This document shows, in pieces, positions 2,522-59,500 of a stretch of 64,000 nt of DNA. Location of the stretch: assembly GCF_052425735.1 (NCBI RefSeq), contig NC_135758.1:46252001-46316000 (forward strand). The letters are read 5' to 3'. The translations under genes were made by a program, and so were the position numbers. This DNA comes from Oculina patagonica. Taxonomy: Eukaryota. The notes under the pieces were generated by a model. That model searched no databases, was not told where the DNA came from, and was given only the letters and a program-made list of their open reading frames with translations. The stretch's first letter is position 1. The number at the start of each line of letters is the position of its first letter.

Positions 2522-4606
2522 GGATCGATTTCTGGAACCTCCTTGTTAGAATGGACAGCTACAGGCAGTGAATGATTCAAGAAGACAAAAAAGCAGTTAA
2601 TATATCTGATCTTTGAGATTTTAAACAATACTTTATGCGTGTCAAATTCTATTTAGGAGCGCGCTCGACCATCACCAATCAAATATCTCCACATTTTCAA
2701 TTTGCGTGCCCAACGTCACTTACAGCTTAAGACTCCATGATGTTTAGAATTCATATATTTTACCAGCTTTAAAAAGACTTTTAAGTTAATCAAAGCTTCT
2801 GACTATTGTTTACGTATCGGGAAGAAAACGCACCAGTAATTGATTGAAAAAAACTCAGTAATGCAGTTCAGACACTTAAAAAGCCCATAAGGCCACTTAA
2901 TAGACACCTTCTGTCATTAACTGCTGATGAAATCGTGATACTCAGGATTGGTATGTTTTATCAGCTTTAAAGTTAATTAAGGCCTTTAAATTAAATATAT
3001 TATTACACAACAGAAAAAAGGGTCCTTTGATGACCGACATAATGTATTTGAGTCGCAACAAAACCTAGAAGTTTTCTTAACAGACAATTTACCTCAATAA
3101 CAGCAAATGAGATTGTGAGGTTTGGAATTAATTTATTTAAATCCAAACTTTCGGAGTATCCCACCACGGAATACGAAAAGGGTTTAACTTGACGTTTCAA
3201 AAACAGTAATGCAGGCTACATTAAACGACAAACGACCCCCCTTTAATTTTACTAACCGTAGCTATTGACACCTTACTTAACTAACAGCTAATGATTTCAT
3301 GATGTTTAGAGTTTGTATATTTTATCAGCTTTATAAAATTTTAAGATAATTAAACCTTTGACTATCGTATTTATTGGCGAATTAAAGACGACCAGTAATG
3401 CAGTCGAAATTATTAAAGAACATAAGGGCGATTACTAATCAGACACCTTGTTATTCCGCACGGGTTTTTGTTCCACTGGGTATTAAAGAAAACATTGGTT
3501 TTATCTAACATATTTTTTCTTCTAATAATTTCAATTTTCTGTAAAGATATTGTGAAAGCAACGCTTTGACGCTGCGATTAATTAAAACTGCCAGACTTCA
3601 CATTGAAGTTTTTTGATTTCGTAGCTGACATTAAACGTGATCGCTGTAAATCAGAACGTATCATACCTTTGTATATCCACCTTTCTTGCTATATCACGAA
3701 AAATATCAGTTGATATAACTAATGCCACGAGTACCTTTCCAGTTCGAAGAAAACAACCAGATAAGAAGCAGATAATTTTTCAAAATGTTCTCGACTTCAA
3801 ACAATTGGTGGAATCGAGTTAATTGGAATATTTAGCAATTATTTACCTAAGTGGCGCATATCCACCGCTTTTAAGCATTTATCAAACTTAAAGTGAAATG
3901 GCCGGCTTAAAAATTTATAGCTTTAATCGAATCATCGAAAAACAAAAAAATCTTTTTCAAAGGGGTTTCGACCGAAAACATCACGAGAAAAGTCGCATGG
4001 TAACATCAAACAATTGACCGAAAAATATTTGTTTTGAGTATTGAATGGATTTATGAAAGTGAAAGTTGTTTTTCTAATCGTTTTATTTCGTCATGGCTTA
4101 CAAGTTTTGTTATTACTGTTCCCTGGGCAATGGAGTGAAAATTGCAGTTCTGAAATCTGCCGCTAGAATCTGAGCCTTGAACAAGATGCAAAGAAGATCG
4201 TGAGAACCAAGGGAAAGAAAATCGAATGCTTGGCTGAACCTGACTTTTTTTTGATTTCCTGGAGAAAGAAGAAGAGCTAGAGATTTGGGAAACCACGAAA
4301 CATTTGACATTGATAAGGCGACCAGAATACTTTCAAACATAACTGGAGACGGAGATTAGTTTAGCGGAAATTTTCCAAATCGTATTCCTCGCCCACAGCT
4401 AAAAGCGTATATAAACACGAGAGGATAACGGCTTTATCCCCTCTTGATATAAAGTAGTGTTTCCCATGATAACGAAAAAATAGTGTAAATAGAAACTTTG
4501 GTCAATCATTGCAGTACCTTTCGGGAGAAATATAGTCATCGACAGAAAAAAGAGAATGTTGCTGTTTATCACTCTCTGTATTACGTTCTGCTATAGCGGT
4601 CACCTT

Positions 4607-37234: not shown

Positions 37235-37281
37235 AGAAACATAATCGAGTCGGTACAGTGTACCGACTCGATTATGTTTCT
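37235..37281. repeat. Perfect 23-bp inverted repeat with 1-nt spacer
   Basis: agaaacataatcgagtcggtaca-g-tgtaccgactcgattatgtttct. Confidence 0.95.
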
Positions 37282-38779
37282 GTTTCCTGCTTAACAAAAA
37301 TAAACAAGCATTGTTTTTGATTAGCAGTTATCATTGATTATTAACATTGAAAATAAATAATTAGAGGCTAAGAGTGTAAAATATTATGCAAATATAAATA
37401 TATTAATAACACAAAATATGCAAATAGGAGTACAATCATTGATTTTTATTGTTATCGCCAGCTGTGAGTATAGTTCATTTTGTGTATTTTCAGATGGATT
37501 TCATTCTGTACGTCGAATCACATTTGGGCTGTTACATTGTTTGTCATGGCTCTGGAAAAATCCAACTTAGTTGCAGAATATACAAACTGAAGTCTTTTTT
37601 CCCTAAAACACAAGTTCGCGATTGCACATAGTTTATATGTTGATTAAAAAATATAACGCTTTTCTTCTAAGACAGAACGTAGATTCTCTGAGGTAAGAAG
37701 TGTACTTCCACTACACTCAAGTATCAGTGCACGATGGCAGCTTGTTCTTAGGCTTTGTCTTCACTTTATTTGGTTTATGTCCAAGTTGCTCCGTGACTGT
37801 TATGAATCATTCTGTAAACGTACAATGTCAGATCAGCTGATTAACTTGAGTCCGTAGCTTCTGTGTTTTTTAATGCAATCTTTTTTTGGCAAAAAATGAA
37901 ATGTTCATTTGTTCTTGACATATTTAGTTTCATTTTAATAAATGTCGCCTTTGATTTTTGTGTACTTGACTTGTGATTGACGTATTTTCTTGGCCTGCAA
38001 CTGAATAAAATCAGAGAAAGATCCTGTTTAGTTTTAGAGCCAAAATAACTTGAGTTAGTAGGAGGCTAAATTTATTTCAGATTAAAATGGTTGCATGAAA
38101 CACTTCAGTTGTCAAGGTTTCAACAGCCAATTGATTTTTTAACAACGCTTATAACTGATAATTACCAATTACTCGTAAGAATTGTGTTATAGAAATAGAG
38201 ACCTTGACTTAAGAGTGTAGTCATGTTGTTTGGGGACAATCGCTGCGTGAGTAAATGGATATAGTTCTCCAACTCATTAATAATTCAGCAAGTTAAAACA
38301 AAGAAAATGATAACCGTGAAGGAGGTTTGGAAACCCTATCTTAATAAGCATAGATTTTGTACGATTTTATTTCTCCATTTATTCCGTAGTTTTTGTTGCG
38401 ATTGAGAAGATATATCAAACACTCGAGACAGTGTTTCATTGGCTATCCAAACATCTCGGTGTTGGATATCCCGATGGAACACTGTCTCTTGTGTTTGATA
38501 CTGATTACTTCTAAACTTAACATGTATGAAAAACTTATAGAAAGCAAAAGCTTAGGATGCTTGTAACAGCTGTAAATTTCAAATTAAGGTATCACTTACC
38601 TTCATGATGATGTAGGGCTTGGTGTCTGTCAGACATACATGCACAGCTAGCTTTGCACAGCATTGATTGCTGTGCACCAGGAATAGTTGTTGAGGACATA
38701 TCGTCCTCATCTTATCGTTAATTTGCAAACTTATGTTTTTGTTGTTTGCCGGTGTTTAAATTTACCACTTTCTCTTTCA

Positions 38780-39560
38780 CTTCATTCACTACATTGGCTA
38801 AATTCAGTATTTATTCACGAAATTAGATAGGCTCAGGATTTTTACTTCATTGGCTAAATTTACTACATTAGCTAAATTCACTATCTTCACTAAATTGGCT
38901 AAATTTACTATATTCACTACATTGGCTAAATTCACTATATTCCTCTCAATTGGCTAAATTCGTTATATTCACTTAATTGGCTAAATTCACTACATTCACT
39001 AAATTGGCTAAATTCACTATATTCACTAAAATGGCTAAATTCATTATATTCGTCTAAATTGGCTAAATTTACTATATTCACTAAATTGGTTTAATTCACT
39101 ATATTCACTAAATTGGCTAAATTCACTATATTCACTAAATTGGCTAAATTCACTAAATTGGCTTAATTCACTATATTCACTAAATTGGCTAAATTCACTA
39201 TATTCACTAAATTGGCTAAATTCACTATATTCACTACATTGGCTAAATTCACTATATTCACTACACTGGCCAAATTCACTATATTCACTTAATTGGCTAA
39301 ATTTACTATATTCACTACATTGGCTAAATTCACTATATTCACTACACTGGCCAAATTCACTATATTCACTTAATTGGCTAAATTCACTATATTCACTACA
39401 TTGGCTAAATTCACTATATTCACTACACTGGCCAAATTCACTATATTCACTTAATTGGCTAAATTTACTATATTAAATCACTAAATTGGCTAATTCACTA
39501 TATTCACTACATTGGCCAAATTCAATACATTCACTACATTGGCTAAATTAAATTCACTGC
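38780..39560. repeat. 27-bp minisatellite (aattggctaaattcactatattcacta)n inside the Helentron 3' region
   Basis: More than 20 tandem units read directly; scattered degenerate units continue to ~39895. Confidence 0.95.
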
Positions 39561-39988: not shown

Positions 39989-42900
39989 TTATTTTCGTTT
40001 GCATAATAAATAAAGAAGGACTTTAACTGCATCATGATCGGAATAGTAAATGCTAATTATGGTATTTTCGACAGTTTTGAACTTTTGTGACTTGACATAA
40101 ACGTGATCGAGAAGACTTCCTGATAAAAATGTTGGTTTGTTAACAATTTGTTGATAACCTAACGTTTTTTCCAAAACATTCTTTAAATTATGCGATTCTT
40201 TTTCATCCTGGAAATTGATATTAAAATCACCAAGTATTACATCGATCGTGTACAAATTGATGATATGTCTTAGGTTATTAACAAAATCATGCACGTTACA
40301 GGCTTGTTTTCGGTAAAGGGATAAAAGTTTCATTTCACAATTCTTCCGTCTAGTGAAAACTGTTGTCAACATCAAAGCATTTATGACTGGAAAATACTCT
40401 TTTTCAGTGATAAGAACTGTTGTTTTGTTACAGAAAGCTAGGCTTGAATATCTATCATCGTTGTCGTGCCTGTTTAGTATAAAAGGATCAAGATGATCTT
40501 GCATATCATTGTCTGAATCAGATGGTAGAAGTTGAGTCTCCGTTAACAGAAGGAGATCACAGTTAAAAATTTTAGTGTCAAATTTCATGTCAATACTGTG
40601 TTTTCGAAGCGATCTGATATTTAACAACACAATAGGTATAATGGGATCATCTTCCTGTACTTGGAAATTTGTATTATCTACCAGCAGCGATGTACTTCGT
40701 AGTCTCTCATACTCGTCAAGTACTCTTGGATCTGCTTTGACATGTTTGCGTTCTAATTTTCCAAGCACATAAAGACCTTGAAGAGAAGTGGCACGGCTCA
40801 GAGCAACATATATTTGTCCGAAGTTAAATGACCTTTGTCTAAACAATTCGAAACTTACAACAATTTTTTTTAACGTTAATCCTTGAATTTTATGAACAGT
40901 ACATGCCCACGCCAAAGCTAATGGAAACTGCAATCTTTGTATTTCTGGCGATGAACGCTTCCCTGGGTTACACTTTATTTTAGCTAAAATTGGTTTAATT
41001 GCCACAACTTTGTTTTCTATAGCAAAGGTATCTGCAGATTTTTCAATCGTCAAGTTACCTGCATCATCGTCATCAAACTTAACGTACACGATAGTGGGCT
41101 TCTGAGTAATTTCACTCACCATAATTCGAGCCACAGTACCCAACTGGCCGTTTATAAGTCTGTCAGAGATATCGACATTGTTTGTTAACATGACACGAGC
41201 ACCTTCTTTGACAGAAATCTCAAAATCAAGACCACCTGTGTAAGAACGTCCTTTTGAAAGAACTCTTTCAATATCTGTCCTTGATACATTGTTTGGATAT
41301 TGGTCAACTGCTTGAAGGACATGTAAAGGCATGGAAATGTCTTGAAGACGTTGATTATTATACTCTGTAGCAGGTTTATTTTCAGCCCACACATGAAGCT
41401 CATTTGAAGGATAGTTATTTGTGTCATTGAGATCAATCGATCTAGATTGAATAGTACATATGTCGGCTTCTGTGTGTTTTCCAACCCTCAATCTGTTTAA
41501 GAGCTCAATAAAGGCTTGATCACCCTTTTGCCGCATAATTTGAAACAATTCTACCATCTTGAATTCATACCATGGATGTGCTAAGTTATATGTGTCATTG
41601 GCATAAGAAGAAAAAATAGGTTTCTGTTTGATAGGTGGTAACTGGAGTAAATCACCCACAGCGATAATGCTTATACCGGCAAATATCTTTGAGCTCGAGC
41701 TTCCAAAAATTTCTTTTAATCTTTGGTGGATATGCAGTAACATATTGTTTGAAACCATTGAAATTTCATCAATAATTAAAAGCTTGAGTTCACTAAAACT
41801 GAGCCTCAACAACGTTTTCTTTTGATCTGGCAGTGGAGGTAAATTAATTCCAGCATCTTTTGGAATACCTAGTGCTGTGTTAACAGTTGTACCACTAATG
41901 TTTACAGCTGCAACGCCAGTAGGGGCCATTAAGAGAACTGTTGGCAGAGAAGGATTTAGTGCAGCATACTTGAATGTATTCACTACAGTGTGATAAATTG
42001 TTCTAATTAAATGGCTCTTTCCACCACCACCTCCACCAGTAACAAAGATATGTATTGGTTCAATGCTTTGTTTGTCCAAGCAGTTAACGTTTTTTATCAT
42101 GCTTCTACACCAAGACAGCACAATGTCATACGTAAAACGTTGTTTTTCATTTAAAGTTCTTACAGAATTGCGCAATGCATCATCTGTTATAGCAGATGGT
42201 TGGTTGTAAGTAGTAACTCCTAGGGATGTTGGTTGGATGCAAGGTTGTGGAATTGATATCAATTGTTCAGGTAACTGCTCATCGCATTGATCAAATTCAT
42301 CTGTGTCAGTTGTTGGTTCTGTTGATAAATCATCATTTTCTTGGTCATTAATAGCATCATATGATAGACGATTCAGTTTCACTGTGTTTTCACTTAACAA
42401 CTGCAACGCAATATCAACAGCCTCAGCGTTGGGTTCAAATATTCTCCTGTTTGCCTCTACTTTAGTATTCACTACTGAGTCCTGAAATTTGGTTACGTAT
42501 AATTGATCATCACCAAGAAGATCACTCTCTTTTCGCCATGGAAAGTAAAGCATTAATAAATGATGATAAAATTTTTCAGGCTCTTTTTTTTTGCTTGGTG
42601 TGTGAAATCTTATAACAGCCTTCACCTTTCGACGTTTCATGATTTCTTGGGCGTTAATCAGCTTAATTGTCGGTGGTAGAGCTGATTCAGAATTAGAAAC
42701 ATGGTTGGATTCTACTAAATCGTCAGAAAGTACATTTGGCTGAACATCATTAAACTCATCAGAATTTTGTCTGTAGTCTTTGTAGTAGTAAGCTGCAAAT
42801 TCAGCTAAGCATAACTGGTCAACAATATAAGGTCGATCACTGTATCGTTCAATTACATTTGACTTGAAAATATCAGTGCTATCGTCGTCAAGTGCTTCGA

Positions 42901-44177
42901 TCTCTTGTTGACATTTTGCAACTCGACATCTTTCTTGCGGTAACCCAGTATTAACAAAAATTGTGCAAGGAAATGTCTTTCGTAACCAAAGTTCAGGCAT
43001 GCATCTGTAAACACATTCTTGAGCACTGACTTCCCTATAAGACAAGAAAGCTGCACCAACCTTTTTTAAGCTTTCTCTAATGTTTAAATTATTGGCTTTA
43101 GCTTCTTTTGCGGCATTCATAATAGCTTGGGAACATTCAGTCTCATCTTTTGAAAAGTATGAACAAACGTAGGTTATGCACTTGTAGTGATTAAAAACAG
43201 GCTGTAAATCAACATTAGCTCTAAACCCTTTTATTCCAGCTTCAAAGTAATTATTAATGAAGCAACTGTTAATTGGTCTTTTAAGATGCAGTTCAAAATC
43301 GGCATCTGCGCTAATTGATAACGCCCAGTTATAGTTGTCTTTGGAAACTTTGCACATAGCCAGTAAATCGTCTGCAGTTATGCTTGAGTCATAATTAGAC
43401 TTACTTGGATCCAATTTTTCATTGATTTTCTCTTTTATAGAACATAAGATTTCATTACGCCTTTCCAATAGCATTGCTTTTTCATCATTAGGAATTTCAT
43501 CTGGCAATGGTTTAGAAACAACTGTCTGGTCTGTGAAAAATTGGCCAAAATCAAATCTGCATGGAATATTTTTATACTTTTTACAACTTCTTGAATGAGT
43601 GTGCTTCTGATATAGGTTTACTAAGTCATGGAATTCGGAATCGTTTTCCTTTTCTGGAAGTCTTCCTTGCACATGTTCATCAATGTATCGTATATAAGTT
43701 TCCTCGTTGCCTTTTTTCAGCTCAGGACAATCTGAAGTCCATATCAGTGAGTGCAAGTGAGGAGAACCACGCATTTGAAATTCAATCCTAAGTGCATAAT
43801 AAATAATCTTTCCAATAGGGTTGGCGTTACTTAGTAATACATCCTTAAAAAAAGTTTCCACTCTGTACTGGAAGTGCTTAGCAGTAATAACAGGGTTAAG
43901 ATTAAGCAAAGAACATTTCTCATTATACGACAAACTGTCAATTTCCTCATCCGTCATATTTTCTCCTTTTACACGAGACAGTATGTGAACAAGTTCATGC
44001 CATCTAAGATCAGCACATGACAAAGTCAAAAACCATGTTGGGATTCCGAGTTGTTGTACCATTGCTATCACTTCATACATAAACTTCTGCCAATACGGTG
44101 GACTACCTGGGATACCTCTGAGAAAAAGATATGCCTGGTCCTTGAATATCAGTTTTTTGAGACATTGTTCATCTGAT
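39989..44177 (-). CDS. Helentron RepHel-EN, C-terminal part: HUH Y2 Rep + PIF1-like SF1B helicase + AP-like (EEP) endonuclease
   Basis: Rep motifs WFLTLSCAD, EFQMRGSPHLHSLIW, YVCSYFSK. Helicase motifs GGGGGGKS, IIDEISMV, GDLLQLPPI, QIMRQKGD, QFPLALAWACTVHKIQGLTL, YVALSRA. Endonuclease motifs LNIRSL, LTET, GDFN, LLDHVY, SDHDAV. Out of frame with the upstream ORF. Confidence 0.93.
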
Positions 44178-45543
44178 CTAATACCCATATCTGCCTTTAG
44201 GAAACAGAACTGGAAAGGCAAGCTCCTCACAATATCTGTCAGTCATTATAGACACGGGATGCTTGTTTTCTCCAGGAGCGATATCAAATATTTCATTTCC
44301 AGCTGAAGTAGTCCTGCCTTGCTCATCAGATATAATAGGGTAGTCTGGAATGATGGATTGAAGACAGGTTTCACATGTTGCTGCTCTGTGTTCGTTAATT
44401 GGGTCTTCCTTATCACAGTCGTCGGCATCATCCTCGCTTTTATCTTCACTGGTGAAAGGTGTACTTTGGTCATTGTTTGCGTTTTCTGATCCGGCGTGCT
44501 CGTTAAGTGAATGTTCCCTCTCACAATTGTCACCACTGTCGTCATAAATATCACTAGGTGATACGGTTCCATTTTGAGAACAATTTGTGGTGTTCGATCT
44601 ATTTTGTTCTTGGTGCGCACAAAAAAACGATAGTTCAGGATCAATGTTCTCAAGATTAATAGTTACATTTTCATACAACTCGTTATTACTTTTAAGCCAG
44701 TTGAGAGCATGCATTATGAGTTGTGGACGGACTGCCTGAAAGTAGACATGACCTCTGAATTGTAACTTCCGCTTTAGTTTTAACATGATAATCCCAGTAC
44801 TATCAGGTGGCCGTGGTAAAACTTTACATGTTTCCTCACAGGTCACTGGAACATTACAGATCGCTCCTTTAATTTTCCGTTGCTGACCTTTCGGCATCAC
44901 AATGAGTTTTTGAAACACTATTCGTTGTGAAATCAGAATTTGCTCGAGTTTTTCTAAAACCGCAAGCTCGCGTGGTACTTCATCGACTCCAAGGTTGTTG
45001 TGCACTGCTTGACATGGAGTTTTGTTTTTCTTTTTGATTGTATTATGACAAGTGTTACAAATATACATCTTTTCATTGAACGACTTCACACTTGTAAACA
45101 AACAGCAGCTGGAGTCGTATTTATCCTTTTTAAATTCCACAACAGTTTTTCTGTACAAAAGCCTATTGCAGACCACACAAATATAATAAGGGCCTTCCCT
45201 TATATCTCGATTGAATTGTTTAATATAGTAGTCCAGAGAATGTATAGATGAACGTTTTTCTTGCCTTAATTCTTTTTTTCTGGCTGCGCATTTTTTTACT
45301 AGGTCCTTCTTCTTACTAGAATCCATTAGTTTGTATTTTTCAGCTCTTTTGGTTTTTAGCGCCGTCTTTTCATCGAGATCCATAAGCCTGCATTTTTCAG
45401 CTCTTTTGGTTTTTAGCGCTGTCTTTTCATCGCTATCCATAAGCCTGTATTTTTCAGCTTTTTTAACACTTAGCGCTGTCTTTTCATCGCTATCCATAAG
45501 CCTGTATTTTTCAGCTTTTTTAGCACTTACCGCCTTTTTTTTT
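44178..45543 (-). CDS. Helentron polyprotein, middle part: 19-aa repeats, C4 zinc finger, pre-Rep conserved region
   Basis: CVVCNRLLY...YICNTC; QRKIKGAICNVP; LKLKRKLQFRGHVYFQAVRP; ends EELAFPVLFPKGRYGY*. It joins the upstream ORF if one A is removed from the A9 run at 45535-45543. Confidence 0.85.
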
Positions 45544-45612
45544 ATCGAGTTCCATGTTTGCGTACTTTGAGGCGTAATAATCTAAGCAAGCTCGTTTCTT
45601 GGCTGGTTCCAT
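45270..45612 (-). repeat. Coding 57-bp (19-aa) tandem repeat
   Basis: MDSDEKTALSVKKAEKYRL-type units; atccat recurs at 45321, 45378, 45435 and 45492. Confidence 0.9.
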
Positions 45613-47427
45613 AGCAGCATAGCTTTCCCTTCTATCTTTGGCAAGTTTCTGCTTTTGCTTTGCTGACACATGCCTTCTTAATACAGTCTGGCGGTCTTTG
45701 CTTGATAGCTCACAATTGCACTTAACGAAATGTATTTCGTATGCTTTCACATCTAACGTTGTTTTATCTGCTATCATTCTGAGAAGAAGTTCAATTGCAC
45801 TTGTTATGTTCTTGACTTTCTCATAATCATGACCTTTCAATTTGCTATTGTTGAGACCAAATAGATTGTAACATGTATTCCCTTTACAATCTCTTTTAAA
45901 AATGCAGCAAACATAGCATTTTAACGCGGACATTAAAAAGCCGGTATTGTGTTCTTGGTTTTCTGCAATAACTTTTTTCATTTCTTGGATAAAGCATAAA
46001 GACTGTTGTTCTGTTTTTCTTATTTTGTATGCAACACTTAAATGTGCCTCGATGATTGCAATGTCTATTGCAAGTGAATTTGGAAGATCAGAGGCCGTGC
46101 AATGTTCTTTTAACATGAGCTTTTCTTGCAGCCGATTACAATTTTCAATTATGGCATCAAATGTATTTTCATTCCAATAACTAATTTGCTTTAAGACGGA
46201 GAAGCAAATTGCATAAAAACAAATAAAACAGCACTGCTTACAAGAGCAATAAGTGTCACTGTTTCGTACACTTTCTTGACCTATTTCAGTTTTACTTAAA
46301 TTCTCAAACTGCACTGGTCCAGAGATTTCGGGCGTCGTTATACTAACACCTTCGGTCACTTCTGTTAATATCTGGACGCCTTTCAATTCATAAAGGGCAT
46401 CTTTTATTAATATGTGCAAGTTTTTAAAATACTGGACAAGATGGTCAAGAGAAGCTATTTCAATTAGCACACAGGTACCACAGGGATCAGACATTCCTTT
46501 AGAATCACGGCTATGCGAGTCAAAGACTTTAAATGTACCGTCCTTTGTTATAAAAATGGCTACGGTGGAGATCGTTATTGTGAGAATAAACGATTTGAAG
46601 TTTTCTCCAATTAACAGATCAAAGGCGTCTAGTAGGGGTCGACAATGAACATCTTCTGTTGCACAGTCATATAAGTTATGTACAGTACCAAAATAGCTGT
46701 CACTGTATCGCATGCTATACATGGTTTCTCTTAGACACAACACTTCAGGTAATTCCGTCAACATCAAGCGATCCTGTGCTACTGACGTTGAAAGGTGTGT
46801 GTATAACTCATTACCAATGGTCATTATTTCTACAAGGTCTGAGGAGGATCTTACGGAATAGATGAAGCTGTACAATATTGCTGTCAAGCTCATTGCCACA
46901 CACTGATTTCCTGCATTTGAACCAAAAACTGAACTATTTCCTTGACTGTATGGAGCATGAATGGTTTTGGTAGGATCTACTACAAACGGGCCAGGATTTG
47001 TCTCTATATCCCCAGAAAGCTTACTAACAATATTGTTTATTCTGTGATTTACATTTTTGTACACCAGTTTATTCCGTGATGGCAAAATTTTACAGCCATT
47101 TCTCAAAGGGTATTTTTCAGTAACTGTAAACTCATTGCCTTCCGATATACGTTTGCCATTGGCAAATGCAACCCTTTTGCGCAGTGAGGGTGTTTGAATG
47201 ATGTGATAGAGTTTTGATGACTTGGGAACATTCTTTAATACATATTTTCGCATTATTTTCCTAAGTTTTCTCTTTCTTAAAGCCCGTTTCAATTGTTTTA
47301 CAGGCAGCCTACTTGGTTCTGCACAGCGTCTTTTTTTCCCATTCTTTTGGCTGTCAACACTATTAACAAACAATGCAAAGCGAGATCTAGATGATGTTTC
47401 TTTTATTATCTTCATTGCGTCAAGCAT
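45520..47427 (-). CDS. Helentron polyprotein, N-terminal part: basic leader, 2A-like motif, viral-tegument-like deubiquitinase (VTD, peptidase C76-like) and degenerate second VTD
   Basis: LSGDIETNPGP (DIETNPGP = aa 140-147); SQGNSSVFGSNAGNQCVAMSL (Cys176) and VFDSHSRD (Asp303/His305); second unit KQCCFICFYAICFS..ISYWNENTFDAIIEN. Confidence 0.8.
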   Translation of the reverse strand: MLDAMKIIKETSSRSRFALFVNSVDSQKNGKKRRCAEPSRLPVKQLKRALRKRKLRKIMRKYVLKNVPKSSKLYHIIQTPSLRKRVAFANGKRISEGNEFTVTEKYPLRNGCKILPSRNKLVYKNVNHRINNIVSKLSGDIETNPGPFVVDPTKTIHAPYSQGNSSVFGSNAGNQCVAMSLTAILYSFIYSVRSSSDLVEIMTIGNELYTHLSTSVAQDRLMLTELPEVLCLRETMYSMRYSDSYFGTVHNLYDCATEDVHCRPLLDAFDLLIGENFKSFILTITISTVAIFITKDGTFKVFDSHSRDSKGMSDPCGTCVLIEIASLDHLVQYFKNLHILIKDALYELKGVQILTEVTEGVSITTPEISGPVQFENLSKTEIGQESVRNSDTYCSCKQCCFICFYAICFSVLKQISYWNENTFDAIIENCNRLQEKLMLKEHCTASDLPNSLAIDIAIIEAHLSVAYKIRKTEQQSLCFIQEMKKVIAENQEHNTGFLMSALKCYVCCIFKRDCKGNTCYNLFGLNNSKLKGHDYEKVKNITSAIELLLRMIADKTTLDVKAYEIHFVKCNCELSSKDRQTVLRRHVSAKQKQKLAKDRRESYAAMEPAKKRACLDYYASKYANMELDKKKGGKC

Positions 47428-48055
47428 GGGGATACTCAGTGAAGCTGTATTTCAGTATAATTGTGTATAATTGTGTATATTTCCGTTACTTGGTTAATCT
47501 CCGTTACGCTAAGACTTTGCTCAGCTTAATAATAATAATATAATAATAACTCTTGATAACTGGGACAACTCTTGATAAGCTCACTCGTCGATCAGGTCCC
47601 GTTTTTTTTGGAACCTAAAAAAGAAAAAGAAAACAACAAATATTGTCAGTGTCTTCTAAAACCCATTTAGTTCATTTTGTTAAATATTCAAGTCCTCCGT
47701 GTTAACCTAAGGGACTGTTAATTTTTTATAGGGGGGGGGGGGGGCTGGTGGGATTTGATAGATAGTCACTGTTAAATATAATGCCCCCCTTCTTCATCGG
47801 AAATTTTTACCTGCTCCCCCTCTCAAAATCGATTTTTTTTCATGTCCCCCCCCCAAAAAAAAAAACAGTAATCAAGTGATCAAGCCTTTGACTAAAGAAT
47901 GCATCAGTTGTTCAGTCATAAAAATAGACAAACAAAATCCCCCCAAAATTGCCTTGACTGTCTGTTGTGGATTCCGTTTGTTATTTACCCCTTTAAGCCC
48001 CAATATCAAAACAAAAATTCTCATTACTTATTTTCATACATTTTTCTATAGTATG

Positions 48056-48993
48056 TAAGGGACTGGTCAATAAGTACAGGGGGGAGGGGGGGGGGTGGGC
48101 CAGAGCAGAAAAGGGGTGGGTCATCAGTTTTTGAGCCCTCGAAAAGGGGTGGGTTATTTAATTTTGATCTACACGTAGGGGGTGGGTCATCTTATTTATT
48201 CACTAACTTTAAACTGTTATAGTTCCAAGAAAAGTTGTATTCATCATTATATAAAATTGATAAATTTCTCCATGTGAGCAGTTTTAAATGAATTTCTAGC
48301 AATTTCAAAAGGCCCAAATATAAAAATTTCCCGGGGAGCATGCCCCCTGGCCCCCCTAGATGACTTGTGATCGTAACATCAGTTTTGCTTGTCTCTCTTC
48401 AACCTGCATAGATTCACGCTGGGCTTTAGGCCTTTTAATACCAGTAAACTCTTTAGTCAAACACTTTGCAAATATGAATGATGGGCAGTGGTTGAAGTTT
48501 CTGTTATTAATTTCTGTATAAAAATATGAACTCTTCAATAATTGATTATGAATTAATATTACATACTGATTCAGTTTTTTGCATATGTTTGTGTCTAAAT
48601 TTCCCCATGGACTTTACACACAAATATGTGGAAAACTTACAAAAGGCTAGTATAAGAAGCAATAAATTCATCCTTCTTTGGTGTGTAAAGAAAATGGAAA
48701 AAAGACGTACATGGAACCGCAGTGTTCATCAGGGAAAATGTCTATGTAGGGAATTTCACTTTAAAAGCTGAAGTCAAATCAAAAAATCTCCAACTCCTAA
48801 CAGATGATAAAGAAATGATTGGTCCCTAAAAATTTTTTAGCAAAAGGGGTGGGTCATGTAATTTTCAACCCCCTATCAGGGGTGGATCAATCATTTTTGA
48901 GCCAGAAGGAAAGGGTGGGTCACAAATTTTTGAGCCACCACCTTTTTTAATTGCTCCGGTCCACCCCCCTGGTACTTATTGACCAGTCCTTTA
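48056..48993. mobile_element. MITE with ~22-bp TIRs, nested in another short repeat (~47985-49122)
   Basis: taagggactggtcaataagtac / gtacttattgaccagtccttta. Confidence 0.8.
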
Positions 48994-50553
48994 GTTGGAG
49001 AATTTGTTAAACAATCAAACAACTTTTCCTTTTGTGATCATTTGTCAATTCTCAAAACCTGTCCTCTTGTTTATGTTTTGATATTGTGACGAGAAATTTG
49101 ATGTTGGCACTCTTGGGGTTAATAACAAAGAAGAGTACATAACAAAGAAGGGGGGTCCAGAGGCATGCTCCTCTGGGGAAAAATGGAATTTTCAGAACGT
49201 CAGGAATGTTATTTAGGGCATTTTAACAAGATTCAAACTATAACAGAAACCCTCATTACAACACTTTAAGCGCCGCTTTAGTGTATGCAAGACTTGTACT
49301 GGTACAAATTTGCGTTCTTTATTGTTTTAAACTTCGGTACCTTTATGCGTTTTGAACGGTTCAGGCAAGAGGGAGGACAATTGGTAACCTTTAGTAATTT
49401 TGTTTCGTTTTAAATTTGATTGTTCAATGTTCTCAATTTTTCTTGCATTTGTGTATTTTAATATATTTTAGTTTGATGTTATCAAAATCCATATGACCTT
49501 TTCGCTACGGCTCAACTCATACAGGGTAAATTTGTAGGTTATCAAGACTACAGCACCACTTGAAATCTTATAGGGGGTGTTGTCCTACACAGGGTATGCA
49601 TTTTAAGTTTTTATTGTCCTAAACAGGGTTTCAATTAATAAACTCCCAGCGGCACCCCTATACCTAAACTTAGGTCAAGTACCCACCTCAGGGTTTCAGC
49701 TAAGGGTATTGTAGTTGCCTTAATAGTGAGGGCTAGAGATAAGGGACATGGTGGGGTAGGGTGTTAGAACTGTGTTATAATTACTGCTTTGTTGGTTCTG
49801 TTGCACAATAGTTCCTGATTAGTTTGTTTACAGTAGAGACAAATCGGGCGTGCCAAGTTTCATCAGTTTTAGCTGGTTGGGCTTCGAGGAATGTAGAATG
49901 TAGATGTAGATGAAACTGCAGAATTCCTTCCAGTAAATAAACTCAACGCTTCGACTTACTAATGTTAATGAAAATACTTCTTTGTTTTTTTCTGAAGCGG
50001 TGTAGTAATTTTCTAAATCCTAACTATTCCCAGACAAGGTGCGTCTTGGGGTTTCAAATCTGTTCGCTTAAAAAAGTCAAAATTTCCGAACTAAAGATTG
50101 AAATATGAAAGAACTTGAACTCAACTTTGTTTAGAATAATATTTCTTTTAAGATGAAGGCAAGAAATGCATACCAAAGCGCCAAGATATCGAAAATTACG
50201 TCGTGGATTCCATCGATCAGAAAGAAAGCTATAAAGAGTTAATAATTTCGTGTTTCAAATTTATAACTTCTAATCTTTATTCTGTTGGGCGTCACATTGT
50301 AATTACTGTACTGTACTTCAATTTTTTTCTTGGGTTGTCCGGCATTTTTTTCCGAACGCGCTTTTAGATGTCTCGGACGATCACTAATCTCGAGCACTGA
50401 TTAAAAATAAATCCGGGAGAAAATAATGCAATTTCACGCAAGTACTTTCACTAACTTCAGTATTATTGAATGTCCGATTTAAGTATAACTTCCATTTAAT
50501 TTTTTTCTGTTTGTGACGACAGTCAAGCAAAGCACGTTTTATTCGAAGGCTTA

Positions 50554-51302
50554 GGGTGCGTTTCTTTGGGAAAAATCCAAATCCGGATTCTTGATCCAAA
50601 AACGGATTTTGCGTTTCTTTACCTATATCCGAAAATGGATTAATCTTGGATCAATGATCTGAAGAATCCACACTCGGAGTGGATACATCAGATCATATCT
50701 GAATCCGGATTTTTAGGATTCATGATCCGTGCGTTTCTTTGGGAAAGGATTCGAAAAAAGTACCTTGGCCCAGCGGTCTTTGCTGTGAAAATGCAGGTTC
50801 GCTCTTTGTAAACATTGTCATACGGTACGTTTTCAGGCGGTTATTTCGATCAAAATATGAAAATATTTCATGTTAAAAGGAAACGGTTGCTCCATAGGTA
50901 TGAAGTGTCATTTTAAACTTGATACAGGTTTTCTAGAACAGCCACCGTGTGCCTACGGAAGTTGTATCCTTTTGAAATTGTCACGAGTGCAGTTTGCATT
51001 GATCATTTCGCAAACATTCTTCGCTCTTTGATGCTTTCTCGCCACACTGTGCTTGAGGCTAAAGAAGAACTATTTCGACGTGTGATTTTTGTAAAAGATT
51101 TTGTATGCTGAAATTATTTTATCTAGGATACATTCGACGAAAAATAAATTTGTGCTGATATTTTTTGTTCTGTGCGAAATGTGTTTACGGGGTTGTCATG
51201 GCAAAAAATCCATTTTCGGATTCTTCGTTTCTTTGGGAGCAAAGTATCCATGTGATCTGAGATCAATGATCCAATTTTGGATTTTCCCAAAGAAACGCAC
51301 CC
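50554..51302. mobile_element. PIF/Harbinger-type MITE
   Basis: TIR gggtgcgtttctttgggaaaa / ttttcccaaagaaacgcaccc, flanked by a 3-bp TTA duplication (50551-50553, 51303-51305). Confidence 0.85.
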
Positions 51303-52994
51303 TTACTGTATCAAGGCAGTTCCAACTTTGGTAGCACATAACTTATGCAAATTCATGTCCCTTACGTGACAAAAAAATACAGTCAGAAAATGCGTGATAT
51401 TTTTCGTTATTGCTTTCGTCAAGGTTTTGGTATTCAATTTTAAACATGACTTCAATTCAAGCTTTTCATTTCTGGTACACGTTATGCGTCCAGCAAAGCA
51501 CATTGTGAGAATTTGAAAACTTAAATGTCAAGTAAACAAGCTCGTCGAGCGATCGAAGGTAAATAGTGGATACGAAATACCTGTACATCACACGCGAATA
51601 CTTTTAAAACTGTCCATTTTTGCGAGGAATAAATCGTTTTCTCGGGAACATTTTCGAGTTTGCACATTTAAGAAAAACTTTTTTCTCGATACCCAGAGAA
51701 ACGAACAGCTCATGGAACATAACAATTTAGAGCAACACAACACCCAGAGAAATTAAACGAACTGCTTTCTATGAACAGAATTTGGAGCAACACAAGACAC
51801 ATAACAGTATTTCAGTGTTTCTATAAATGCTTTCGCTGTACGAACAATATAATTCTGCTTCTGCGAGCTAGTGCTTCCCTTCTATGAGATCGATAATCGC
51901 TGAACCAACAGAATTGTGATTTATTACTAAGCCTTATCTCACGAGCAAATCGGCACGGTAAAAGGAAACGCAAAATGGGCTCTGTACAGATATCAAAATT
52001 TTAACCCTGACAGTAAAGGAAATACACGTAAACGCTTACCTTCACGTTTCTTGTCCACGGGCAGTCCGGGAATTGTAAATACACTTCTGCAGATTTTATA
52101 AAGCTCAAGGCAACTCAACGCGACCTCAACAAACACAGCGCTCGACGACATCAACAACGCAACTGGTATTGCACCACCGCTTGCCAAGGTTTTGACATCT
52201 GTCATGACGTAATGGTTCTTTATTTAGCGTGCAGCTTGGACATGTCAAAACAAGTCGTTGTTTTGCAATATATTCAGCACGTTCCGTGTACGGCTTGTAC
52301 TCGCTTCGAGAAAAACGCTTGAATAACACAATATCACACAAAACAGAGCGCAGAGTATTCGAAAATATTTTAAAAACCGGCACTGAATGATTTTTGTATA
52401 GCTACACGCGACTGATCGCTGGTAAACATCAAATCTTGCGTGACCAAGGCGTGACCTGCTGGTCACCGTAATAGTTTCATTTAAAAATAGCGTGGACATT
52501 TCAAAACAGTTTTCGGTTTTGCAATGTGACAGTCAAACGCTCGAATGTCACAAACATACACTTCACACTAAACAGAGAGCAAAGTGTTTGTAAAATTTTA
52601 AACGAGCGATCGCCATACACATCAAAATTTGCGTGACCGTGACCTGCATCTCGAACGATTTACCGACAAAACGACAAAAACTAAACCCCGGGCAGATTAT
52701 GAACCGGGCCCAGGCCCCGCCCGGTTAACAAGTTTTTGGAAAAACAAATTTACCCCTTCACATTACTTCAAATTGTTCGTCTCCAGCAGAAACTGGAAGG
52801 TCACCGATGAAGGAAATATAGACATCAGTAAACCTCTTGAAAGAAACATCCTTTTTTCGACTTTTTTTGCTTGTTTACAAGCGAAAGTAGGAGAATAGCA
52901 GTTATGTTGGGCAGAATTTGGAACATTCTTGTTAACTCTTAAGGGACTTTTTTAATTTCTCAAGGGACTGTTTTAATTTCTCAAGGGATTTTTT

Positions 52995-53161: not shown

Positions 53162-53416
53162 GTATAAACGTTATATAACAATTATTTTTATGCGTGAGTA
53201 TCTCAAATGAGATATGACACAACTAGTCGAAAATGTGAGTGGTTCAGCCCATGAAGGCAACGTTTAAGTCTTTCACAGTCTAAAGCGTTTGAATTCTTCC
53301 ATGATATGTTCGAACAACAATGCCCAGGATAAACCTTCTACTCATAACCTAAACGATTTGTTTTCGCGACAATCTATTGCGTTAGTCACGCTAAACACGA
53401 GTAAAGCGGCGCTAAT

Positions 53417-54122
53417 ATTCAATCTAACCTGACCTGTGACACTGAAAACCTCATCTACATAATTCAATGTAACCGCTGTAATTTACAATACATAGGAGAA
53501 ACTAAACGACGTTTAAAAGACCGATTTAATGAACACCGCCGTACCATAGATAACCCCAACAGTAAATCTAAACCCACTACAGCCGCACAACATTTCACTT
53601 CCTCGCCTAACCACACTGCTAATGACATACAATTAATCCCCATCGAAAAAGTCTTCTCTAACCGAGACTCAATCCGTAAGGCCAGGGAAGCTTTTTTAAT
53701 TCTAAAAGGCAGAACACTTGTTCCCGATGGCCTTAACATACGCGAAGAAACCTATTAGTTTGTTTACTTATATTATTATGTTGTCATTTTTTAAGCTTAG
53801 CATATTTTAAATTTTTTGTTTTATACTAGCACACTGTTTACATATTTCCTGTATTTAGTTTTACGTATTTCCGGTATTTCGTAAGATATCATTATCACCA
53901 TATAAATTTAAACATAGCCAATGTAAACTTCATTGTACCTGAAGAAGGCTGGTTTGGCCAGCCGAAATATAGTACAAGACTAACTCTCTCATTCTACGTT
54001 GTATCGGTCTCTGCTTCTTCAATTTCAGTTTTCTATGTGTCAAACCGATTAGATCACTCAGTTGATCCAACGTATACCGGTAGGAGATCGTACACGGTTT
54101 GCTTGCTTGAACTTTTAATAGT
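53417..54122 (+). mobile_element. 5'-truncated Penelope-like element: GIY-YIG endonuclease remnant (53417-53758) plus 3' region
   Basis: Manual translation LTCDTENLIYIIQCNRCNLQYIGETKRRLKDRFNEHRR...HF...RKAREAFLILKGRTLVPDGLNIREETY*. A 13-bp direct repeat cgctaatattcaa at 53410-53422 and 54123-54135 brackets it. Confidence 0.9.
53933..53977 (+). ncRNA. Minimal type I hammerhead ribozyme of the Penelope-like element
   Basis: Stem I TTGTAC/GTACAA; core CTGAAGA(A); stem II GGCTGG-TTTGG-CCAGCC; GAAA; palindromic minimal stem III ATAT. Predicted cleavage after A53971. Confidence 0.8.
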
Positions 54123-56300: not shown

Positions 56301-56513
56301 AGGCGCGTTTACACGACAAAAAATTTGGGTGTGGACCCGTCAGAAAATTGGTCCGGACCTGATCACTTTTGTAGAGAAACAGTCAAATCAAAACGGGGCC
56401 ATAGGCGCCTATGGCCCCGTTTTGATTTAACTGTTTCTCTACAAAAGTGGTTAGGACCAGACCGTTTTTGTGACGGGTCCGCACCCAAATTTCTCTGCCG
56501 TGTAAACTCGCCT
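56301..56513. mobile_element. Fully palindromic Harbinger-type MITE
   Basis: 213-bp fold-back centred on taggcgccta; ends AGGCG.GTTTACACG; TGA duplicated at 56298-56300 and 56514-56516. Confidence 0.85.
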
Positions 56514-56554: not shown

Positions 56555-59500
56555 CAAACAAGCAAAAGTCATCGGAAGAACTCTGAAAATTGAAAACGCT
56601 AAATATTCAATCGACAACGTGCCAAAGGAACTACTTGAGTGAGTTTATTAGTTTATTATAATACTATTTGTCTTAATCGTCATTAATTCCGGATAAGGGC
56701 GCACTCAGGGTTGCTATAGCCAATGTTGGTTTAAGTCTGCTTAGTTAGGAGGATTTCGAAGTTGATGGAAATTGCTTTACTACCTTTCTGAATTGCTCAG
56801 GAGAAATCAAAATTCACAAACCCGAAAATGCTAATCACACTTCTTAGTTCTATTGTTATATATGTGTCTAGTCCCTCGTGTCTTTTTTCTTTATTGTATG
56901 CATACTTATTTATATTGTTTGGTCTTTACGCACTCAATTTCACGACTTTTTTTTCTCTAAGTTATTCAATGATAATAATATAGACGTAGGGTTAATATCT
57001 CTCAATGTGAGAGGATTACGCGAGTATAGGAAATCTAATAAGATATTCAACTGGGTGGCAAAACACGGTGGAAATCGAGGAATCGCATTTCTTCAAGAGA
57101 TTCATTCGATATTGAGACGGAATGGTCCCAAAGATATAAAGGCGAAATAATCATGTCTCATGGAACGTCAAATAGTAAAGGTGTCGCTATTTTATTTGGT
57201 GAACAACTAGACTATAGCATCGTTAAGAAAATTATTGACCAAAATGGCTGATTTATCCTCGCTTTGTGCCTGTTGCAAGGCAACTCCTTTCTACTAATAA
57301 ATTCTTACGCACCCAATGATGAAAAAAATCAAGTATCGCTTGTGTTAGAGATATGCGTAGTAATCAACAACCTTGACTGCCCAGTAGATACCTCTTTTAT
57401 CTGGGGCGGCGACTTCAACTTTATCTTCGATATAGAGCTGGAAGCAAGCGGTGGGAATCCAAAATTAAAAACTCACTCGATCGAAGCTATTCTGGAAATT
57501 ATGCTAGATCTGGATCTGTGCGATATATGGAGGGTCAGAAACCCGGACGCCAAAAAATTCACCTGGAGCGGCAAAGGGCAAGGACGAAGCAGCTCCTTAA
57601 ACATAACCATATATAGGCGTTTAGATTATTTCTTAATTTCTGACGAACTTCAATCATATATCGAACAAGTAGATATCATTCCGGCCCCGTCCACCGATCA
57701 TTCTGCGATTACTTTGCGTATTAAATCATTGCCCGGGGTTAAAAACGGTCCATCATTTTGGAAATTCAACAACTCTCTCATTAACGACAGCAACTATATT
57801 GGAGAAATGAAAAATGTAATAAACAACTGCAAAGTAAAAATGGATTCTGAAGGAATTGTAAATCCTCAGCTGCGATGGGACTTGTTGAAATATGAAATTC
57901 GCAAATCAACAATAACATTCTCAAAAGCACGTGCAAAAACATTCAGGAATGAATACCGAGATATCGAGGAAAAGATTAAGAAAATCGAAAGCTTTCACGG
58001 GTGGGAACATGACCCTGTTAAAACCGCCGAGCACGACAAATTAAAAAAGTCTTTGGAAGATAAAAGCAATTACATCACGGAAGGAATAATCATAAGATCC
58101 AAAGTGAACTGGTATGAGCAGGGTGAAAAAAATACAAAATATTTTTTATCACTGGAAAAGCGTAATAAGGCCAAAACATATACTTTATCAGTTTTCAGTA
58201 TCTTTAATTTTTGAAGAAAACTCAGCTTTTTTAATAAAATATCCGATAAGCGAACGTTGTTACTATATTTGCATCTATGCCAGAATCCGGCCGCTGGTAG
58301 TACGTTCTCTAAGGTGCCAAAAAGGGCAGAATAGTAATGTCATTTCACGCAATAAATAGGATAAGTAATAACAGCTACATTTGTTGTAAACTGATTTGTT
58401 GGCTTGTCGTTGTTTGGTTTTGCTAGCTTGATTATTTCTGTCGATAAGGACTCTTCAATGTTACTTGTAAAAATCACATTAGTTATGCATAAATTAAATT
58501 TCTCATCTTTCATTGTAGTTCAAATATCGCAAAAAAAGACGAGGTTCCAATACTCCGATTCACGGTGACTTTTAGTATGTTATTCCTCAATATATGCAAA
58601 GTCGAATAAGGCATGTTTTATTTTTGTTGCAATTTGTTTTGGGTTAGGCAACGAAATGGCTTGTATTGACTGGACTACAAGGCTGGAAAACGCTAATGAA
58701 GGACGCCGACGCTTTTGAGGATCACGATCCCTCAAACCCCGGTAGAAATGACACTGCTTCCAAAATAACATCAAAAGACGTATACCTTTCGTTTGTTCAA
58801 TCAAAATATAAAAAACCTACTGCCCAATCTCATTTCCTGAAACGGGTCGATGGCCAAATTGACTGGGAATCCGTCTATCGTAGAATATATAACATGTCTA
58901 TTGATCTTTACACAAGATGTTTTCAATATAAAATCCTTAACAATTGCCTTTATTTAAACAGGGACCTATTCCGCTTCAAGATCATCGAATCTCCTATTTG
59001 TTCCTTCTGTTCTATTTATTCAGAAACAATCGATCACCTTTTTGTCCATTGTGAGCACTCTAAATCCCTGTATAGGGACATAAGAATTTGGACTAAATCT
59101 GCCGGAATTGTTTTGCCAGAATTGAATATCTCAAATATTATATTAGGTAAAGACTCTGAAAAAAACAGCGCTATAATAAACCTTATTCTTACAGTGTTCA
59201 AACTTTTAATATATAAGTCTAGATCTGGTGGCCAAATGCCAAGTGTACAACGTTTCATAAATGAACTCAACTTTTATGAAAAAATAGAAAGAAATATTGC
59301 CAGGAAACGAGATAAGCTTGCGTGTCATTTTAAGAAATGGTCTAATCTAGTATCTATTTTGTGAGATATTTAAACCCCTTATCTTTCCTTTATAAAAGCT
59401 TCCTGTATAAGTAGCGTAGAGACCACTCTTTGTTGTTTGTTTTGTATGGCACAAACTTGTAATGTAGTTTATGTAGATTAGGTTAATTTGATTTTAGTTA

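Follow-up and report, generated by a model that had tools for sequence, protein, structure and literature searches.

Why would a rolling-circle transposon of a stony coral carry two deubiquitinase (DUB) domains of the herpesvirus tegument type, one behind the other, if only one of them has the residues of an enzyme? The question is raised by a 64,000-nucleotide stretch of Oculina patagonica DNA (assembly GCF_052425735.1, contig NC_135758.1, forward-strand positions 46,252,001 to 46,316,000), referred to as the window herein and numbered from its first letter. A first-pass annotation had read at 45780-46986 an intact and an inactive domain of this kind within a Helentron. We found that the locus is a defective copy of a stony-coral Helentron (HLE2). 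The reading that we favor, at a probability of roughly 0.6 for the whole, is that of a DUB-headed Helentron whose second DUB domain is dead and whose polyprotein carries a 2A-like motif acting as a weak translational throttle.

Two deubiquitinase folds in a Helentron polyprotein

Analysis of open reading frames (ORFs) gave three overlapping minus-strand frames running from 47451 to 39989, the first with a 635-aa product that starts at a Met at 47427. Pfam searches placed Herpes_teg_N in the first frame, DUF6570 in the second, and Helitron_like_N and PIF1 in the third, where a C-terminal endonuclease match was weak (E = 7.5e-4, under the curated cut-off). The Helentron context read earlier from the letters was confirmed: DUF6570, a Rep with the Helentron-type RGSPHLH motif, a Pif1 helicase, and a C-terminal apurinic/apyrimidinic (AP) endonuclease are present, and Rep, helicase, and endonuclease share one polyprotein, encoded by a single ORF in the homologues P0003 and P0007. 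Rep motif 2 (ExQxRGSPHxH) reads IEFQMRGSPHLH and includes the Ser that marks Helentrons (PMC4067079); the three residues before it are ALR, unlike the F/Y-x-R given there. Intact relatives encode one ~2,540-aa polyprotein composed of a basic leader, the 2A-like motif, two viral-tegument-like deubiquitinase domains (VTD1 and VTD2), helical repeats, DUF6570, Rep, Pif1 helicase, and AP endonuclease. The head of this polyprotein lies in the window as follows.

47050-47427, minus strand: basic leader peptide, aa 1-126, with the family motif RSR..F..REPSR.P.K.L.R..PKSS (sequence, alignment)
46987-47046, minus strand: 2A-like (StopGo) 20-mer, HRINNIVSKLSGDIETNPG and then P, with its core motif at 47010-46987 (motif, conservation)
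46363-46986, minus strand: VTD1, predicted intact deubiquitinase domain, aa 148-355, with Q162, C176, E225, D303, and H305 (Pfam, alignment, structure)
46249-46362, minus strand: variable linker, aa 356-393 (model, alignment, substitution rates)
45712-46248, minus strand: VTD2, predicted pseudo-enzyme of the VTD fold, aa 394-572, with G524 and N526 at the Asp and His sites of active VTDs and no Gln-Gly strand (hhalign, structure)

Homologous proteins were sought with aa 125-600 of the window product as query and longer proteins as targets, which yielded 42 matches of 1,147-2,835 aa, Acropora muricata being named among the relatives. Both VTD domains are covered in 36 of the 42, and most matches also carry Pfam Herpes_teg_N, DUF6570, Helitron_like_N, and PIF1. 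The window product and these 36 form the 37-protein alignment used throughout; the six without domain 2 were left out. An alignment-based metagenome scan returned 106 related loci, of which 80 were kept, and the same scan with a single sequence as query gave zero matches.

VTD1 matches Pfam Herpes_teg_N with E = 4e-11, beyond the curated cut-off. The catalytic pattern claimed for it was located as described, with Gln-Gly at aa 162, AGNQC with C176 at 46902, D303 at 46521, and H305 at 46515, and Q162, C176, D303, H305, and R307 are invariant in 37/37 proteins. C176, D303, and H305 align with the Cys and Asp-x-His of 8ADD, a Helitron VTD structure. Likewise, E225 aligns with E377 of zebrafish DrT1-VTD2, which is needed for ubiquitin-tail binding (PMC9741609), and is acidic in 37/37; the position of DrT1 D376 is Thr or Ser in the aligned proteins. 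An AlphaFold model of both domains (mean predicted local distance difference test score, pLDDT, 83; predicted template modeling score, pTM, 0.56) matched 8ADD in Foldseek with E = 5e-15, a template modeling (TM) score of 0.83 by target, and a root-mean-square deviation (rmsd) of 2.3, and cytomegalovirus M48 (2J7Q) with E = 4e-13. The Pfam match and a phmmer alignment assign this structural match to domain 1. Because the assayed Helitron VTDs are active, VTD1 is very probably an active cysteine deubiquitinase, and by the same analogy probably a deneddylase as well: in isolation, zebrafish Helitron VTDs reacted with probes for ubiquitin (and two of the three with NEDD8) and preferred K48 and K63 chains (PMC9741609). 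The role proposed there for Helitron VTDs is to prevent proteasomal loss of transposition proteins, and VTD1 would shield the transposase or the transposition complex, its presumed target, from ubiquitin-dependent removal.

VTD2 gave no significant match in a Pfam search, and aligning one domain with the other by BLAST told nothing of their relationship; their likeness is visible by profile and structure comparison. Alignment of VTD2 to VTD1 by hhalign reached a probability of 91 (E = 9e-7, 112 columns). Folded alone (pLDDT 87, pTM 0.86), VTD2 matched 8ADD in Foldseek (E = 1e-8, TM 0.68) and in VIA (Z 16.6, rmsd 3.1, 171 residues aligned, 8ADD 318-510), the next VIA scores being 15.3 for M48 (2J7Q), 13.5 for Wc-VTD1 (8ADB), and 10.9 for AvrPphB; its Atlas features scored 0.94 to Herpes_teg_N clusters. 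The M48-type fold that had been put forward as a structural check was therefore found for both domains, by Foldseek and, for domain 2, also by VIA. The match of VTD2 begins at residue 318 of 8ADD, only four residues ahead of its catalytic Cys, which agrees with the loss of the Gln-Gly segment. The first-pass annotation had placed the domains between aa 148 (46986) and aa 550 (45780). These equivalences hold; domain 2 extends to about aa 572, and its N-terminal Gln-Gly segment is also gone.

At the catalytic sites, FGLN (aa 523-526) occupies the place of FDSH in active relatives. The earlier reading of LFGLN (aa 522-526) at this place is borne out across the family: the VTD2 column for Asp holds it in 0/37 proteins and that for His in 3/37, and the two never occur together. 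KQC, which had been listed as a feature that domain 2 keeps, fared less well. KQCC is present at aa 397-400, but its Gln column is Q in only 4/37, and the Cys of the nucleophile column is C in 26/37 and Ser, Asn, or Thr in 11/37; judged from the alignment, KQC appears largely peculiar to the window copy. The best-kept residues (Y405, C408, W418, P449, G496, and F497) look like core positions, and the acidic residue that matches the ubiquitin-tail-binding Glu is Asp in 24/37. On these residues, VTD2 is almost certainly incapable of catalysis.

To compare constraint across the head of the polyprotein, we used the window together with 10 close loci whose frames are open, excluding three distant loci and one with a stop. 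The ratios of nonsynonymous to synonymous substitution (dN/dS), which come from pooled pairs that are not independent, a caveat for our reading, were 0.25-0.26 for VTD1, 0.23-0.30 for VTD2, 0.74-1.37 for the linker, and 0.33-0.39 for the leader. The stretch of 21 codons that closes with the 2A-like motif was the most constrained segment tested (0.13-0.22). Since VTD2 is under purifying selection like that on VTD1, we regard it as a retained pseudo-enzyme and not a relic.

That Helitrons carry VTD domains was already on record, including in cnidarian hosts and in an element with two VTDs (PMC9741609). Zebrafish DrT1-VTD1/VTD2 (8ADD) and DrT2-VTD (Erven et al. 2022, PMC9741609) share with the coral family the VTD fold, the Cys/Asp-x-His triad, and the N-terminal position in a Rep-helicase-endonuclease polyprotein. 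DrT1 resembles the window element further in having two VTDs; unlike in the window, both are active (PMC9741609), whereas the second domain of the coral family is dead family-wide and under selection. According to that study, VTDs of autonomous Helitrons retain the full set of catalytic residues, pseudogenes excepted, and inactive VTDs were placed in insect genes outside transposons. These insect inactive VTDs (iVTDs; Drosophila CG32436 and others) are like VTD2 in having no catalytic residues and often occur in several copies (PMC9741609). They lie outside transposons and no active partner is described for them in the passages searched, whereas VTD2 sits within an autonomous-type element behind an intact VTD. 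Judged from the running text of PMC9741609, a family-wide pair of an active and a dead VTD appears to be undescribed. In HELIANO, subgroup b of HLE2 similarly combines DUF6570, Herpes_teg_N, and Exo_endo_phos in its RepHel frame (PMC11417382); the passages found for it there hold neither a second VTD nor a 2A peptide. The herpesvirus large tegument DUBs (M48 2J7Q, UL36, BPLF1) share the fold of both domains and carry their DUB N-terminally in a protein of very large size, and that of pseudorabies virus is tethered with regulated release (PMC11784296). Unlike these, which are virion proteins, the coral element encodes a transposon polyprotein at 14-19% identity, with a dead second domain and a 2A-like motif. 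The herpesvirus tegument DUB has been proposed to stem from Helitron VTDs, and a transposon is evidently able to keep a pseudo-DUB under selection. With its natural single-VTD and active-plus-dead forms, and the double-active form in the literature, the coral family offers a comparison set.

The 2A-like motif and its possible role in recoding

Two features had escaped the first-pass annotation: the defective state of the window copy, and the 2A-like motif, though the boundary that it drew at aa 148 is the first residue after DIETNPG/P. DIETNPGP at aa 140-147 fits the class A consensus D(V/I)ExNPG/P, to which no other match exists in any of the six frames of the window. Among the homologues it occurs in 38 of 42, always 13-18 aa before the VTD Gln, where 0.00015 matches are expected by composition. 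The four homologues without it comprise one degenerate form, one protein cut at its N-terminus, and two Patella proteins with a VTD plus an OTU domain; a search for VTD Helentrons beyond corals brought up only four proteins, three from Patella and one of the coral family. At least three types of upstream sequence precede the motif: H-x-x-N...KLS as in the window, PLLIRQAN before single VTDs, and Leu-rich sequence in distant relatives.

The leader in front of the motif is strongly basic (37 Lys and Arg against 9 Asp and Glu over aa 1-146) and, in the window, has no Pfam or Atlas match. P0015 and P0017 each carry two 2A-like motifs with different upstream types, which suggests module swapping; the two are separated by ~70 aa, and behind the first come a few residues from the beginning of a VTD. 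The leaders of P0038-P0040, P0079, P0089, and P0175 begin with M-x-x-x-I/V-x-Q-Y/W-R-x-x-I-G, a pattern probably shared with the leaders of ORF2 in long interspersed nuclear elements (LINEs) of marine invertebrates. A search with the P0038 leader for such a LINE origin gave, among lengths 1023-3255, four proteins, all Helitron-type.

What might such a motif do? In our reading, some ribosomes would drop off or skip at it, so that less transposase is made or the basic leader is split off, and VTD1 would become the N-terminal domain of the downstream product. This would make the motif a weak translational throttle or splitter that limits transposase output, a role for which 2A sequences of non-LTR (non-long terminal repeat) elements offer a precedent, as they have been proposed to down-regulate downstream products (PMC3708506). 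In its favor are the presence of the motif in 38 of 42 homologues at a set distance from the VTD and in frame in 52 of the 80 related loci, the strongest constraint of all segments tested, and its persistence in three or more subfamilies that differ in the helix upstream. We advance the throttle tentatively, at somewhat under even odds, and put the chance that the motif has any recoding effect in its host no higher. A broader model holds that coral Helentrons use StopGo recoding through a module of leader and 2A, acquired or exchanged on more than one occasion and in every case placed directly before a herpes-type DUB. This module would throttle the transposase and free a DUB-headed polyprotein like the herpesvirus large tegument protein, with the dead VTD2 as a ubiquitin- or partner-binding module. 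It is more speculative still, and we would sooner bet against it than for it.

Several observations weigh against our reading, most of them from a screen of 20-mers in HEK293T cells in which classes were predicted by a model from sort data (PMC13405545, a 2026 preprint). We covered all of its rows with ANDVEENPGP and with DIEKNPGP, 13/22 with DVEKNPGP, 13/16 with SGDIETNPGP, 5/17 with DIERNPGP, and 8/94 with DVETNPGP. Peptides ending in ANDVEENPGP, which represent a coral sister subfamily, were non-skipping in 5/7 cases and fall-off only in 2/7, with none skipping. One of the non-skipping rows is identical to the peptide before the VTD in loci L033 and L037, and one of the fall-off rows belongs to XP_044182051.1 of Acropora millepora, which has "Viral tegument-like DUBs" as its top PDB match and is curated there only as a DNA helicase. 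Four look-alikes of the window type, chosen by eye, with their source proteins unseen, and absent from the homologue and locus sequences of this analysis, gave three non-skipping calls and one fall-off. Active peptides in the screen are Leu-rich at -19 to -10; the window peptide has a single Leu there, and 58 of the 69 distinct 20-mers of the family have one or two Leu upstream. In addition, a 2A motif by itself is insufficient for activity (PMC3708506), and of the 80 related loci 23 have no in-frame form of the motif, many of them being frameshifted or decayed, and in 5 it is truncated. Lastly, the window copy cannot itself make the polyprotein, as its product would end at aa 635.

Much of this evidence equally serves the strongest alternative, in which DxExNPGP does not recode at all. 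Left over from a captured leader, it would serve VTD1 as a structural cap or linker, and the polyprotein would be made whole. The absence of skipping among related peptides in the human-cell screen, the Leu-poor upstream helix, the commonness of inactive canonical motifs in invertebrate elements (PMC3708506), and the Patella Helentron VTDs that do without the motif would all fit. Against a cap stand the retention of D(V/I)ExNPGP, exact at all seven positions in 36/37 aligned proteins, with the lowest dN/dS tested, and the two related peptides and one look-alike that did score as fall-off. The screen, moreover, was limited to 20 residues within a fluorescent-protein loop in human cells, and its authors state that 20 residues may not reflect native context (PMC13405545); a truncated P2A retained only ~8% activity (Rao et al., PMC12338488). 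We consider the cap a serious competitor, a little less likely than recoding of some kind. Since the window peptide is not among the entries of the tables of PMC13405545 and its relatives are non-skipping or fall-off only, we call the motif 2A-like and not 2A.

Peptides related to the window motif already sit, unrecognized, in two published supplementary tables, the second being that of Rao et al., where KLSGDIETNPGP is listed twice, unclassified and untested (PMC12338488). The nearest known arrangement is in non-LTR retrotransposons of the AP endonuclease (APE) type (Odon et al. 2013, PMC3708506; PMC13405545), which likewise carry D(V/I)ExNPG/P near the N-terminus of a mobile-element polyprotein and in some of which the ORF2 protein with 2A also carries a Josephin or OTU DUB. 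The coral host of the motif is instead a rolling-circle DNA transposon, the motif stands before a DUB and not an endonuclease, the helix is Leu-poor, and the leader, set against those elements, measures 100-470 aa in most homologues. We found no description of 2A in Helitrons in the searchable literature, outside of which lie Repbase and most subscription journals. The word "helitron" is absent from the main text of the 2A papers compared, as far as searched (including PMC3708506 and PMC13405545), and the passages and supplements searched of PMC9741609 make no mention of 2A. If the motif does recode in its host, DNA transposons would have a form of translational control on which that literature is silent. 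The range of 2A recoding, so far RNA viruses and retrotransposons, would then include rolling-circle DNA transposons, and their Leu-poor peptides would form a class fitted to the ribosomes of cnidarians; the ~69 natural Leu-poor variants could serve to probe the host specificity of 2A activity. If it does not, the family departs only modestly, in its architecture, from a system already published.

Function and origin of the second domain

In the polyprotein that we favor, VTD2 would be a tethered, non-catalytic binding or scaffold domain. That it is kept as such a folded domain on a flexible tether, and not as a fixed specificity switch, is likely. The linker ranges from 18 to 68 aa in the 37 proteins and is predicted to be disordered (pLDDT <50 at model residues 210-245). 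Contigs in three runs skip ~95 bases of it (46253-46349), implying that close relatives vary in the linker.

The first-pass annotation suggested that the pair may set ubiquitin-linkage specificity, for which VTD2 would have to pack on VTD1 or take up a second ubiquitin; the counter-ubiquitin role that it also suggested agrees with the hypothesis published for Helitron VTDs (PMC9741609). The purifying selection on VTD2, the Asp at the ubiquitin-tail position in 24/37, and the retention of the pair in 36 of 42 homologues would all suit a linkage switch. None of these, however, is positive support for the proposal. Single Helitron VTDs cleave K48 and K63 chains (DrT1 also K11) and Ub-AMC with no partner domain, and proximal ubiquitin binding was inferred by the authors to be unimportant for Helitron VTDs (PMC9741609). 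The linker is variable, unconstrained, and of low confidence in the model, and the lower pTM of the two-domain model (0.56 versus 0.86 for VTD2 alone) is a weak indication in the same direction. Furthermore, relatives with domain 1 alone exist, in which the VTD joins the downstream region directly. We therefore find a linkage switch unlikely.

Equally improbable in our estimate is that VTD2 is a mere folded spacer that has no ligand and whose loss would disturb the polyprotein. The core-like character of its best-kept residues and the variation of its acidic ubiquitin-tail residue would suit a spacer, but the direct joint in single-VTD relatives implies that a spacer is not strictly needed, and the constraint on VTD2 equals that on the enzyme, VTD1. 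An active protease with another catalytic arrangement, for which the frequent Cys at the nucleophile column and the invariant C408 nearby might be invoked, is very improbable given the Ser, Asn, or Thr in that column in 11/37 proteins, the lack of a conserved His in the expected strand, and the absent Gln-Gly segment.

As for where the pair came from, a search with the VTD2 profile found 622 representatives at E ≤0.001. Among the best 150 of these, Asp-x-His is present in 7 of the 84 rows that cover the catalytic strand; by inspection, six of the seven are active-looking VTDs and one is a VTD2-type fragment. Several of the six have a 2A-like variant before the domain and, after it, C-terminal sequence resembling the region that follows VTD2. 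In quick trees, VTD2 forms one clade (SH-aLRT support 98-100) adjoining the single VTDs of the Asp-x-His type (90-91), while VTD1 groups with single-VTD Helentrons (99). An exclusive clade of VTD1 and VTD2 is rejected by the approximately unbiased (AU) test (p-AU = 2e-5), and with the tree placement this rules out a recent tandem duplication as the source of the pair. From these trees it seems somewhat more probable than not that VTD2 is an older resident DUB, inactivated once the element had acquired an unrelated VTD ahead of it. Two points count against this origin: keeping the active-looking group out of the wider clade is not rejected (p-AU = 0.2), and the sister group of VTD2 was picked by the VTD2 profile itself, in a quick, unrooted tree from a short search.

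In P0175, which belongs to a separate lineage, the 2A-like motif is Leu-richer, one VTD is intact, and in a second VTD the N-terminal motif has partly decayed. Judged by its sequence, this is possibly an independent active-plus-degenerate pair.

The window copy, its ends, and its surroundings

The remaining features of the element are, from the 5' to the 3' side of the coding strand:

47615-47640, minus strand: probable splice acceptor, a pyrimidine tract with AG at 47616-47615 upstream of the coding exon (sequence)
45535-45543, minus strand: break 1, a run of nine A, one base more than in most relatives, that shifts the frame (frame change against P0003/P0007; DNA alignments to loci)
45321-45521, minus strand: 57-bp coding repeat in 3.5 copies, encoding a helical repeat of KKAEKYRLMD type (repeat search; similar repeats in homologues)
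44178-45581, minus strand: second frame, a Cys-rich region and DUF6570 (Pfam, E = 3e-22)
44178-44184, minus strand: break 2, ~193 bases (~65 codons) deleted at the start of the Rep domain, with a change of frame (P0003 aa 1091 to 1157)
39989-44242, minus strand: third frame, Rep with the HUH motif given above, Pif1 helicase, and C-terminal AP-type endonuclease (Pfam, motif)
38844-39549, minus strand: 27-bp tandem array of ~26 copies downstream of the stop codon (repeat search)
38647-38709, minus strand: putative 3' end, a palindrome TGAGGAC-N5-GTCCTCA (38709-38691), a hairpin (38676-38654), and then CTAG (sequence)

The copy is held to have two breaks because P0003 and P0007 (~2,545 aa) span all three frames as a single ORF; the third frame is 82% identical to P0003 aa 1157-2544. 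Break 1 may be a mutation or an assembly error. At the site of break 2 (near 44181), seven loci have ~193 additional bases, and a 994-nt contig of run X17 matches the window at 43367-44181 and diverges beyond, as expected if other copies retain the deleted segment. Neither break was seen among the indels and joints listed for run contigs against the window.

A tract and AG similar to those of the splice acceptor align in 11 of 13 related loci, and because this conserved acceptor lies further upstream, a 5' end first placed near 47530 was given up. Weak similarity links 52037-52200 (minus strand) to the region that lies ~600 nt before the start codons of L002-L005; the match to L002 covers 22 nt at 52058-52037 (E = 0.025) with a possible splice donor GT at 52039-52038, which is a hint only that 52037-52200 may be the first exon of the element. 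A 5' partner of the 3' palindrome was not found in the window or the related loci. Upstream of the coding exon, 47800-51500 holds very high-copy insertions, at a depth 100-fold above that of the coding region, which may lie inside a Helentron intron; an inserted element with 29-nt inverted ends occupies 48056-48993.

Past the endonuclease, L042 (8574-9668, plus strand) and L020 (9546-10523, plus strand) carry a 365-aa ORF, 34% alike and absent from the window. It had no significant match in a Pfam search and may be a replication protein A (RPA)/OB-fold protein.

Elsewhere in the window, a 320-aa ORF at 57252-58214 had no match in a Pfam search. A perfect 23-bp inverted repeat with a 1-nt loop at 37235-37281 and an inverted repeat with arms of ~20 bp near 56428 are not linked to the Helentron. 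Two plus-strand ORFs, GIY-YIG at 53405-53758 (Pfam E = 8.5e-9) and zf-RVT at 58648-59364 (Pfam E = 2e-9), are probably retroelement fragments.

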